NCBI GenBank assembly: GCA_964016885.1
Contig: OZ024743.1
Span: 244,590,001-244,654,000 of the forward strand
DNA from: Eledone cirrhosa
Taxonomy: Eukaryota
Direction: 5' to 3'
DNA length: 64,000 nucleotides
Part shown: positions 17,101 through 18,499 of the stretch, one piece after another
How the letters are laid out: each line of letters starts with the position of its first letter
Position numbering within the stretch: position 1 is the first letter of the stretch
Notes under the pieces: generated by a model
What the model was told of the DNA's origin: nothing
Database searches by the model: none
Seen by the model: only the letters and a program-made list of their open reading frames with translations
Position numbers and translations under genes: made by a program

Positions 17101-17560
17101 TATTAGAAATGTTAGCTATCGCCGTATTTTGACTAAAGAAATTAAAGAAATTATTTAGCCTGATAGTGGGGTTAAGAACCCTCGGAGAAATGGAAAAGAT
17201 GAGTATTGACGTACATGGGAGTCGAACCCACATCTTTGGTTATCCGGACCACTGTGCTACCATTTACACCAACACATCACCCGTCTTTTTCCATTCAAAT
17301 TAGAAGCTATAAACTTAGCGACTCTAATGTCAAGTAAAAATATTTTCGAAACAGCGAGTGGATTTGAAATTATTAGAAATGTTAGCTATCGCCGTATTTT
17401 GACTAAAGAAATTAAAGAAATTATTTAGCCTGACAGTTGGGTTAAGAACCCTCTGAGAAATGGAAAAAGATGAGTATTGACGAACATGGGAGTCAAAATA
17501 CAGCGATAGCTAACATTTCTAATAATTTCAAATCCACTCGCTGTTTCGAAAATATTCTTA
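17101..17560 (-). mobile_element. 270-bp tandem unit containing a tRNA-like cloverleaf, with terminal inversion
   Basis: 17101-17221 repeats at 17371-17492, and 17491-17556 is an inverted copy. A related diverged inverted pair lies at 17941-17980 / 18080-18222. Confidence 0.75.
17207..17278 (-). pseudogene. tRNA-like cloverleaf (pseudo-anticodon GGA); not a canonical tRNA gene
   Basis: GATGTGT TG GTGT-AAATGGTA-GCAC A GTGGT-CCGGATA-ACCAA AGAT GTGGG-TTCGACT-CCCAT GTACGTC A. A and B boxes are present; C33 and T37 are non-canonical. Confidence 0.75.
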
Positions 17561-18499
17561 ATATATATATATATATAAATATATATATATATATATATAT
17601 ATATATATATAAATATATATATATATATATATAAATATATATATATATATATATATATATATATATATATATATATATATATATATATATATATATATAT
17701 ATATATATATATATAATATATATATATATATATAAAGATATATATATATAAAGATATATATATAATATATATATATATATATAAAGATATATATATATAA
17801 AGATATATATATATATGTATATATATATATATATATATATAAAGATATATATATATATATATGTATATATATATATGTATATATATATATATATATATAT
17901 ATATATATATATATATATATATATATATATATATATACATAAGAAATTTTAGTCTGATAATGGGGTTTAGCACCCTCAGATATATATATATATAAATATA
18001 TATATATATATATATATATATATATATATATATATATATATATATATATATATATATATATATATATATATATATATCTTCAATACTCATCTTTTTCCAT
18101 TTATCTGAGGGTTCTAAACCCCATTATCAGACTGAAATTTCTTTAGTTGAAAAATACGGAGAAAGTTATTCTATTTTCTAATTTCAAACCTGCTCACTGT
18201 TTCAAAACATACTTACTTGTCATATATATATTTATATATATATTTATATATATATTTATATATATATATGGATATATATATATATATATATATATATATA
18301 CATATACAGAAATACATACATATTTATAAATGTTTATATATATATTTATATATATATATGGATATATAAGGAATTTATATCTAGTAACATTTCAATGGCT
18401 AGGAATCCAGTCCACGCTTCGCTATTTCCTTTCCACTGAATTATTTTTTTAATAAGTTTCCAGAGTCCTCGCTATGCCTGGAGACTTACACGGAAAAAG

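Follow-up and report, generated by a model that had tools for sequence, protein, structure and literature searches.

Animal non-LTR retrozymes, in the accessible text of the sources, are non-coding tandem units of 170-400 nt with a type I hammerhead in each unit (PMC7229834; 10.64898/2026.07.22.740005), and they have been proposed to be passengers of Penelope-like elements (PLEs) (Cervera and de la Pena 2020; Li, Clavereau and Pollet 2026, both as partially available). The schistosome elements Sm-alpha and Sj-alpha are portrayed, in the available part of the source, as tandem SINE-like units with an internal Pol III promoter, Sm-alpha having a hammerhead (PMC6765202), and Sm-alpha is given as a derivative of tRNA-Gln(TTG) (PMC2770079, available in part). 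For EN+ PLEs, the sections available of Craig et al. report TA targeting and a tail of 30-40 bp "at only one end" (PMC8557442), and those of Frangieh et al. report a PLE protein that cuts and extends both strands, with two internal RNA start sites defining the tail and with insertion in vitro being independent of hammerhead cleavage (PMC11167929). The role of the hammerhead in PLE transposition is open and the process is poorly understood, so that a hammerhead-free unit with thousands of young copies would be of interest as a minimal substrate for working out which RNA features a PLE enzyme requires.

Our analysis of a 64,000-nucleotide stretch of Eledone cirrhosa DNA (the window) and of related copies across the genome revealed such a family. 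We consider it fairly probable that it is a hammerhead-free, protein-free tandem repeat that is copied by PLEs into (TA)n and whose tRNA module provides both a Pol III promoter and a tRNA fold. Within this account, copying by PLE enzymes is likely, and the internal promoter role, as read from the sequence, is probable. The window features are the following.

17101..17370, minus strand: complete subfamily A unit of 270 bp, its 3' end at 17101 being the "short" fixed end
17371..17497, minus strand: partial upstream unit of 127 bp, 95% identical to the complete unit and 5'-truncated within the T loop of its own cloverleaf
17491..17560, plus strand: inverted arm of 70 bp, joined via a 7-nt microhomology at 17491-17497
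17525-17560, plus strand: 36-nt "tail" that terminates the inverted arm, in the tail pattern of paired arms
17207..17278, minus strand: tRNA-like, non-decoding cloverleaf of 72 nt, called by Rfam and ARAGORN
17260..17271, minus strand: A box (tRNA positions 8-19), placed from the sequence and kept in all four subfamilies except for one D-loop A
17218..17228, minus strand: B box and T loop, in which 17222 corresponds to A58; copies are truncated just 3' of this base
17279..17296, minus strand: leader, complementary to the trailer; the G at 17282 (-4, after a pyrimidine) is the putative Pol III start
17188..17206, minus strand: trailer with a terminator-like T run, which in the window copy is T4 at 17194-17197
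17561..17940, no strand: (TA)n target microsatellite separating the two insertions, recognized from the sequence
17941..17985, minus strand: short arm of a separate subfamily B insertion
18080..18222, plus strand: tailed arm belonging to the subfamily B insertion; its 5' truncation falls at the cloverleaf's 3' edge
61095..61227, plus strand: third window copy, an internally deleted subfamily A arm, head-to-head with a different 554-bp family (60235-61094)

The first of these copies comprises 1.5 units with a period of 270 (17101-17370 repeated at 17371-17497) plus a head-to-head inverted arm, and (TA)n lies on the flanks of the 17101-17560 insertion. This agrees with the initial annotation, which had recognized a partial-tandem 270-bp unit with a terminal inversion in (TA)n and, inside it, a complete 72-nt cloverleaf. 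The latter was detected at 17207-17278 on the minus strand by Rfam (RF00005, 42.4 bits, E 1.3e-5) and at 17206-17279 by ARAGORN; its A and B boxes were assigned by their consensus form. The same annotation had treated 17101..18222 as one element, a range that in fact joins the subfamily A insertion at 17101-17560 and the subfamily B insertion at 17941-18222. The unit as a whole folds no better than its shuffles (z -1.47). The window also holds four fragments of broken PLE-like ORFs, representing at least two kinds and all on the minus strand (4037-5205, 8882-9628, 11431-12934 and about 15800-16946), one of them immediately left of the 17101 insertion, and a U6 snRNA copy, possibly a retrocopy, on the plus strand at 33765-33871 (79.5 bits), directly past a TA-rich run.

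Set against the described systems, the Eledone family shares with non-LTR retrozymes, as far as the consulted sources describe them, non-coding units of 259-290 nt in tandem and partial-tandem copies; unlike them, it has no hammerhead that we could find and carries a tRNA module and a T5 run in its place. Sm-alpha is the nearest published design, through homology or convergence: it has tandem units and a tRNA-Gln(TTG) origin, the Eledone module being closest to Gln(TTG) among the genes sampled; the likeness is to the published description of Sm-alpha. An active hammerhead belongs to Sm-alpha in the partially available account, whereas the Eledone unit has none. The PLE-type ends counted for the Eledone family find no mention for Sm-alpha in the text consulted. 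EN+ PLEs such as the hammerhead-less Naiad and the non-autonomous Chlamys MRC1 have partial tandems, a 5'-truncated inverted copy, a single tail and (TA)n targets, according to the accessible text of PMC8557442, but the Eledone unit has no ORF and contains an internal tRNA module. The TRIMp3 elements Helenus, Ajax and Cassandra, in the accessible part of PMC10886601, likewise place a Pol III small-RNA module, a non-decoding tRNA, in a repeated terminal unit; they are LTR elements with PBS and PPT mobilized by Gypsy or Copia, unlike the Eledone unit with its PLE ends and lack of an internal region.

With tRNA SINEs (SINE2) the family has in common A and B boxes from a tRNA, high copy number and young subfamilies, and it differs from them in its internal tRNA, the lack of an A-rich tail, head-to-head arms and internal RT start sites. 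tRNA SINEs were reportedly found in octopus by Ohshima and Okada in 1994. The cloverleaf also lacks the marks of a functional tRNA gene: its anticodon-loop bases vary among subfamilies, subfamily A has C33, and a short variable loop accompanies a Ser anticodon. The literature covered, which stopped short of Repbase, Dfam, SINEBase, subscription journals and supplements, contained no ribozyme-free tRNA-bearing PLE passenger; the family may be present under another label in the consensus files of PMC8557442 or the repeat library of PMC13282606.

Copies are dispersed over many chromosomes of the 3.0-Gb genome. Exact matches number 1,431 for a 27-mer from the tRNA arms and 8,073 for an 18-mer close to the 3' end, with none for either reversed control; these counts are lower bounds and refer to segments rather than loci. 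From 253 fetched loci we built four subfamily consensuses of tandem non-coding units (271, 261, 290 and 259 bp), all young, with a median copy divergence within subfamilies of 2.1-3.2%. The longest arms reach 3.1 units, and 3 of 91 unbiased arms exceed one unit. Tandem neighbours within an arm share private variants (1.83 per 100 sites against 0.32 between loci; 50 arms), an observation that a circle, strand transfer or a homogeneous array would explain alike. One array of about 23 subfamily B units spans about 6 kb (G000:C1, about 131459400-131465700; loci L165, L330 and L331), and its units look more diverged than the dispersed copies. Among four contig sets searched, the unit was present in two organisms with a depth gradient that is high at the 3' end and confounded by subfamily divergence, and a metagenome scan with a 30-mer query gave no matches. 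As separate observations, the contigs of the second organism carry a subfamily C-like version at low depth, and two loci (L356 and L361) hold relatives of the unit that are older and strongly diverged and that differ in their spacers.

The absence of a hammerhead, already noted for this locus, extends to the family. A descriptor that covers types I and III and allows up to two core mismatches found no match on either strand of the four subfamily dimers, while as a positive control it found 18 sites in the window. Rfam listed no ribozyme on a 3.1-unit array at E values up to 10; since it overlooked a clear window hammerhead, the ribozyme test was based on the descriptor with its control, and the absence of ribozyme classes other than the hammerhead is weakly indicated. 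Neither of the outcomes set beforehand as contrary to the initial annotation, ordinary 5'-tRNA-headed SINEs among most copies and a hammerhead in the full consensus, appeared genome-wide: the tRNA is internal to the unit, and the copies are not tRNA-headed SINEs with tails. The 18 window hammerheads are themselves all of type I and lie in several small TA-inserted families and at PLE 3' ends (1662, 7207-7913, 8220, 9734-9880, 10603, 13190, 13567, 33262, 33623, 38498-38594, 44311-44463, 58267 and 61574); none was detected by Rfam at the gathering threshold.

The 3' ends of the copies bear on how they were inserted. After discarding duplicates, edge hits and very short hits, we analyzed 406 arms, of which 347 stop at one of two modes, about +165-185 or +208-228 from tRNA G1, and thus at two fixed 3' ends spaced about 40 nt. 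TA-rich DNA follows at 283 of these 347 canonical ends, and none of the 347 has a poly(A) or simple-repeat tail. An inverted partner lies on the 5' side in 298 of the 406 arms. Among 143 inverted head-to-head pairs, 126 fall within a single subfamily; both ends are canonical in 94, the other 49 not being scorable, and these 94 comprise 92 pairs of one short and one tailed arm, two pairs of short arms and no pair of tailed arms. This pairing and the TA targets match the EN+ PLE layout in the accessible parts of PMC8557442 and PMC11167929, which argues for PLE-type mobilization, as the initial annotation had suggested; the architecture gives that suggestion strong support.

The genome is rich in EN+ PLEs, with 10,597 GIY-YIG candidates (150 scored). 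One arm, a single case, directly abuts a 5'-truncated ORF that carries RT motifs and, C-terminally, those of GIY-YIG (L007/L061), and that we take from its motifs to be Neptune-like; its Pfam RVT_1 match (E 0.0018) lies below the cut-off. An autonomous partner with a common 3' sequence was not found among 30 of the 10,597 GIY-YIG loci, drawn from a few families (best E 0.35). Junctions with additional small families inserted in TA are seen in other arms (L005, L017 and window 60235-61227). One of these families is a 554-bp tandem repeat in (TA)n (window 60235-61094, L017, L035, L036, L049 and numerous further loci) whose 3' ends are fixed at about 468 and 554 of the unit, 86 nt apart; its window copy has no perfect-core hammerhead match and no tRNA call. 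A short GAAA-loop motif is common to this family and the tRNA unit, and the two meet in head-to-head junctions at two loci.

Conservation is concentrated on the tRNA module. The A and B boxes are identical in all four subfamilies save for one D-loop A, while two bases of the anticodon loop differ among them; the "Ser" anticodon is thus unconstrained and the cloverleaf does not decode. Compared in pairs, the subfamilies differ at 4.7% of tRNA sites, at 2.5% of trailer sites and at 11-20% of sites in the remainder, so that tRNA and trailer are conserved 2-8 times better than the rest of the unit. Across the four related lineages compared, this points to selection on the tRNA module among source lineages. 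The cloverleaf contains no compensatory pairs among the four subfamilies.

The 5' ends of the arms may be regarded as a record of the RNA that was copied. Positions are counted from tRNA G1 along subfamily A, canonical T-arm numbers being one higher (A58 is position 57). We scored 315 of the 406 arms, leaving aside internal-deletion pieces and arms without a canonical 3' end, and counted exposure only beyond the selection anchor of each sample (303 events); expected counts assume a background of 0.005 per base, for regions picked after viewing the data. On this basis 81 ends fall at +58..66, just 3' of A58, where 6.0 are expected, and 37 fall at -10..+9, around the 5' end of the cloverleaf, where 9.9 are expected. 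The latter include 12 at -5..-2 (2.0 expected), 2 exactly at +1 (0.5 expected, p 0.1) and 18 at +1..+9. At +27..38 there are 16 events, a weak rise that falls where one selected sample enters. Two further candidates, one a seemingly fixed 5' end (query position 221) and the other a pile of ends at +42, were alignment artefacts that disappeared after re-alignment and trimming.

The T-arm pile recurs in every subfamily (46 of 79, 30 of 61, 9 of 16 and 8 of 17 ends) and among non-inverted ends joined to TA, of which 10 of 16 lie at +59..69. As it sits 6-14 nt inside the tRNA, the cDNA had run past the RNase Z site, and at that site (+73..82) there is no excess of 5' ends (12 against 8.6 expected). 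The cutting into monomers by RNase Z that had been envisaged for this element thus finds no support in the copies. RNase P fares little better, because its product would begin at +1, where two ends lie against 12 at -5..-2; it is unsupported as the main route and possible for a fraction. Several of the -2 to -5 ends then carry a few unmatched bases, as when an RT runs off the end of an RNA. With a pyrimidine ahead of it and the A box 11 nt further on, the G at -4 is a plausible Pol III start. Together with the perfect boxes and their conservation, the ends 2-5 nt upstream of the cloverleaf lend indirect support to the A/B-box promoter that the initial annotation had proposed. Since 87 of 124 arms at risk (about 70%) pass the cloverleaf 5' end and this zone, many templates must reach further upstream, and a start at -4 explains only part of the ends.

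The methylated base m1A58 blocks reverse transcriptases. A58 is kept in all four consensuses, all of which show the T-arm pile. Genome-wide, A58 is changed in 43 copies against 23 for a control A in the same 25-mer, with A>T changes spread over subfamilies and numbering 21 against 6 (p 0.006), a test that relies on one control site; in the fetched sample, which was partly selected on exact A58 and is biased accordingly, it is changed in 4 of 250 only. The template RNA was possibly m1A58-methylated, judging by the T-arm pile and these substitutions. A structural or protein block at the elbow would give an identical pile, and three overlapping 4-bp palindromes beneath it (+62, +65 and +67) shift and may inflate the junction calls, although other palindromes are little used.

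The flanks of the cloverleaf form a further conserved structure. The extension of the acceptor stem, which had been described at this locus, folds in all four consensuses as a leader-trailer pairing over about 17 bp with a 3-nt 3' bulge. Its trailer side, in addition, proved to contain a T5 Pol III terminator-like run, which had gone unmentioned, 10 nt behind the cloverleaf in 255 of 269 copies, the window copy having one T fewer. In the host, 14 of 16 rows of Gln genes show T6 or longer, and T5 is the terminator of Thr genes. In yeast, T5 is the minimal, weak terminator length and adjacent RNA structure strengthens weak terminators, according to the accessible part of the report (10.1101/2021.08.27.457903). 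Because many transcripts should terminate at a conserved T5 this close to the cloverleaf and never reach the RT start sites, the Pol III model needs read-through. Where the leader varies among subfamilies, the change is A-to-G opposite U or otherwise affects one side; compensatory pairs are absent. A>G is three to six times commoner in the leader strand (33 of 1015) than in the tRNA (19 of 3409) or the rest (138 of 13942); this excess possibly stems from editing of paired RNA, and part of it may reflect subfamily mixing.

We propose the following model for the copying of the family. First, Pol III would initiate in a tandem copy, about 4 nt before the cloverleaf, and would sometimes pass the weak T5 run into the next unit or units. 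A PLE endonuclease/RT would then cut both strands of TA-rich DNA, and the two DNA ends would prime at two internal RNA sites separated by about 40 nt, from which a short arm and a tailed one would result. Roughly one RT in two would stall at the T arm, most simply at m1A58; others would run off the RNA 5' end at about -4, and the rest would continue into the upstream unit. Finally, the two cDNAs would be joined head-to-head, often via short microhomologies. Multi-unit copies might be renewed from a read-through RNA of greater length, from a circle, or by strand transfer across the repeated tRNA module. If strands were transferred between different RNAs, mosaic units between subfamily groups would be expected, and there were none among 112.

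A bolder version of this model, which we regard as possible but tentative, holds that a captured tRNA gene with its terminator has replaced the ribozyme, that such "PLE SINEs" form a recurrent class, and that a terminally repeated RNA rebuilds the tandems. In this scenario, Pol III would initiate at the cloverleaf, pass the first weak T5 and stop at the next one, where a complete leader can zip onto the trailer. The resulting unit-plus-90-nt RNA would carry the tRNA module at both ends, and an internally primed PLE cDNA could transfer across the repeat, yielding tandems without ribozyme or circle. Such a conditional terminator, weak in the leaderless first unit and strong in the next, has slight computed support: up to the start of the U run, folding with and without the full leader is predicted to differ by 0.4-2 kcal/mol. 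The conserved T5 run reads differently if the family is a PLE passenger that depends on Pol II read-through or on a promoter elsewhere, with cloverleaf and rod serving stability, export or enzyme recruitment. The run would then be harmless, most arms would be free to pass -4, and a leader A>G excess would be expected of a paired, edited RNA. We nevertheless hold this to be unlikely, as it leaves unexplained the pile at -5..-2 with its unmatched bases and pyrimidine-purine start context and also the perfect A and B boxes, which persist despite drift in the anticodon loop.

Processing of a multimer by RNase P, RNase Z or an anticodon-loop cut, followed by closure of the monomers by a ligase and copying of the circles by a PLE RT, would account for the private variants shared by tandem neighbours, as expected from one template, and for arms of up to 3.1 units. 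The 18 ends at +1..+9 and the weak rise at +27..38 are in keeping with it, and the 3-nt bulge at the acceptor is compatible with RNase P. In the accessible text of PMC7229834, moreover, tRNA ligase closes retrozyme circles in vitro. We judge this route to be quite unlikely, since neither the RNase Z site nor +1 itself shows an excess, ends reach -5..-2, and a unit cut by both P and Z would lose its tRNA. In addition, few unbiased arms exceed one unit, a homogeneous source array explains common variants equally well, and the +27..38 rise sits at the entry point of one selected sample. We find it very improbable, largely on the strength of the end statistics, that the family represents a LINE-driven tRNA SINE, a tRNA pseudogene family or a DNA-level satellite. 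While the tRNA-derived module, the single 23-unit array and one chimera of the unit with a SINE (L214) would suit these readings, the tRNA is internal, canonical 3' ends carry no poly(A) or simple-repeat tail (0 of 347), most arms have an inverted partner on the 5' side (298 of 406) and 3' ends occur as short and tailed pairs; copies also lie on many chromosomes, and array units look more diverged than dispersed ones.

The hammerhead-free family shows that retrozyme-like tandems do not require a ribozyme. If the favored account of a PLE-copied unit with a tRNA-derived promoter is correct, a borrowed Pol III gene driving a passenger, a pattern seen with SINEs and LINEs and with TRIMp3 and LTR elements, would extend to a third retroelement class. 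The positions of truncation and the changes at A58 suggest an action of host tRNA enzymes on the RNA of the element that halves its copying, which would amount to a simple host restriction. Should the "PLE SINEs" be real, the thousands of copies would constitute a fossil record of an RNA start site and of m1A58 methylation. The copies also inflate tRNA gene counts in the Eledone cirrhosa genome.

With respect to the origin of the module, the best match among 37 tRNA-like loci, compared with their flanks, is a host tRNA-Gln(TTG) gene, with which it has in common the D arm, some of the leader and the trailer as far as the T run. The comparison sampled Gln, Thr/Ile and one repeat family, and scores of the tRNA body by itself do not separate the candidates; a post hoc shuffling of the flanks gave 1 in 5000. 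A common SINE carries, just after its B box, 13-14 nt identical to unit positions -5..+9, so that the module may be a mosaic. In the L214 chimera, the tRNA unit is joined at the B box to the body of this abundant tRNA SINE. Two further kinds of tRNA-like loci came to light. A tRNA-Gln cluster (G000:C1, about 168.21-168.26 Mb; L257-L266) contains repeated Gln-derived genes with a CTA (amber) anticodon, which ARAGORN calls tRNA-Pyl (13 calls in overlapping loci). Another dispersed family (L286 and L288-L296; e.g., G000:C5:99221441-99224513) has a fixed 5' end that forms a hairpin, with an intact tRNA-like gene of variable anticodon following about 310 bp downstream, and resembles a DNA-transposon-type element with a tRNA mimic.
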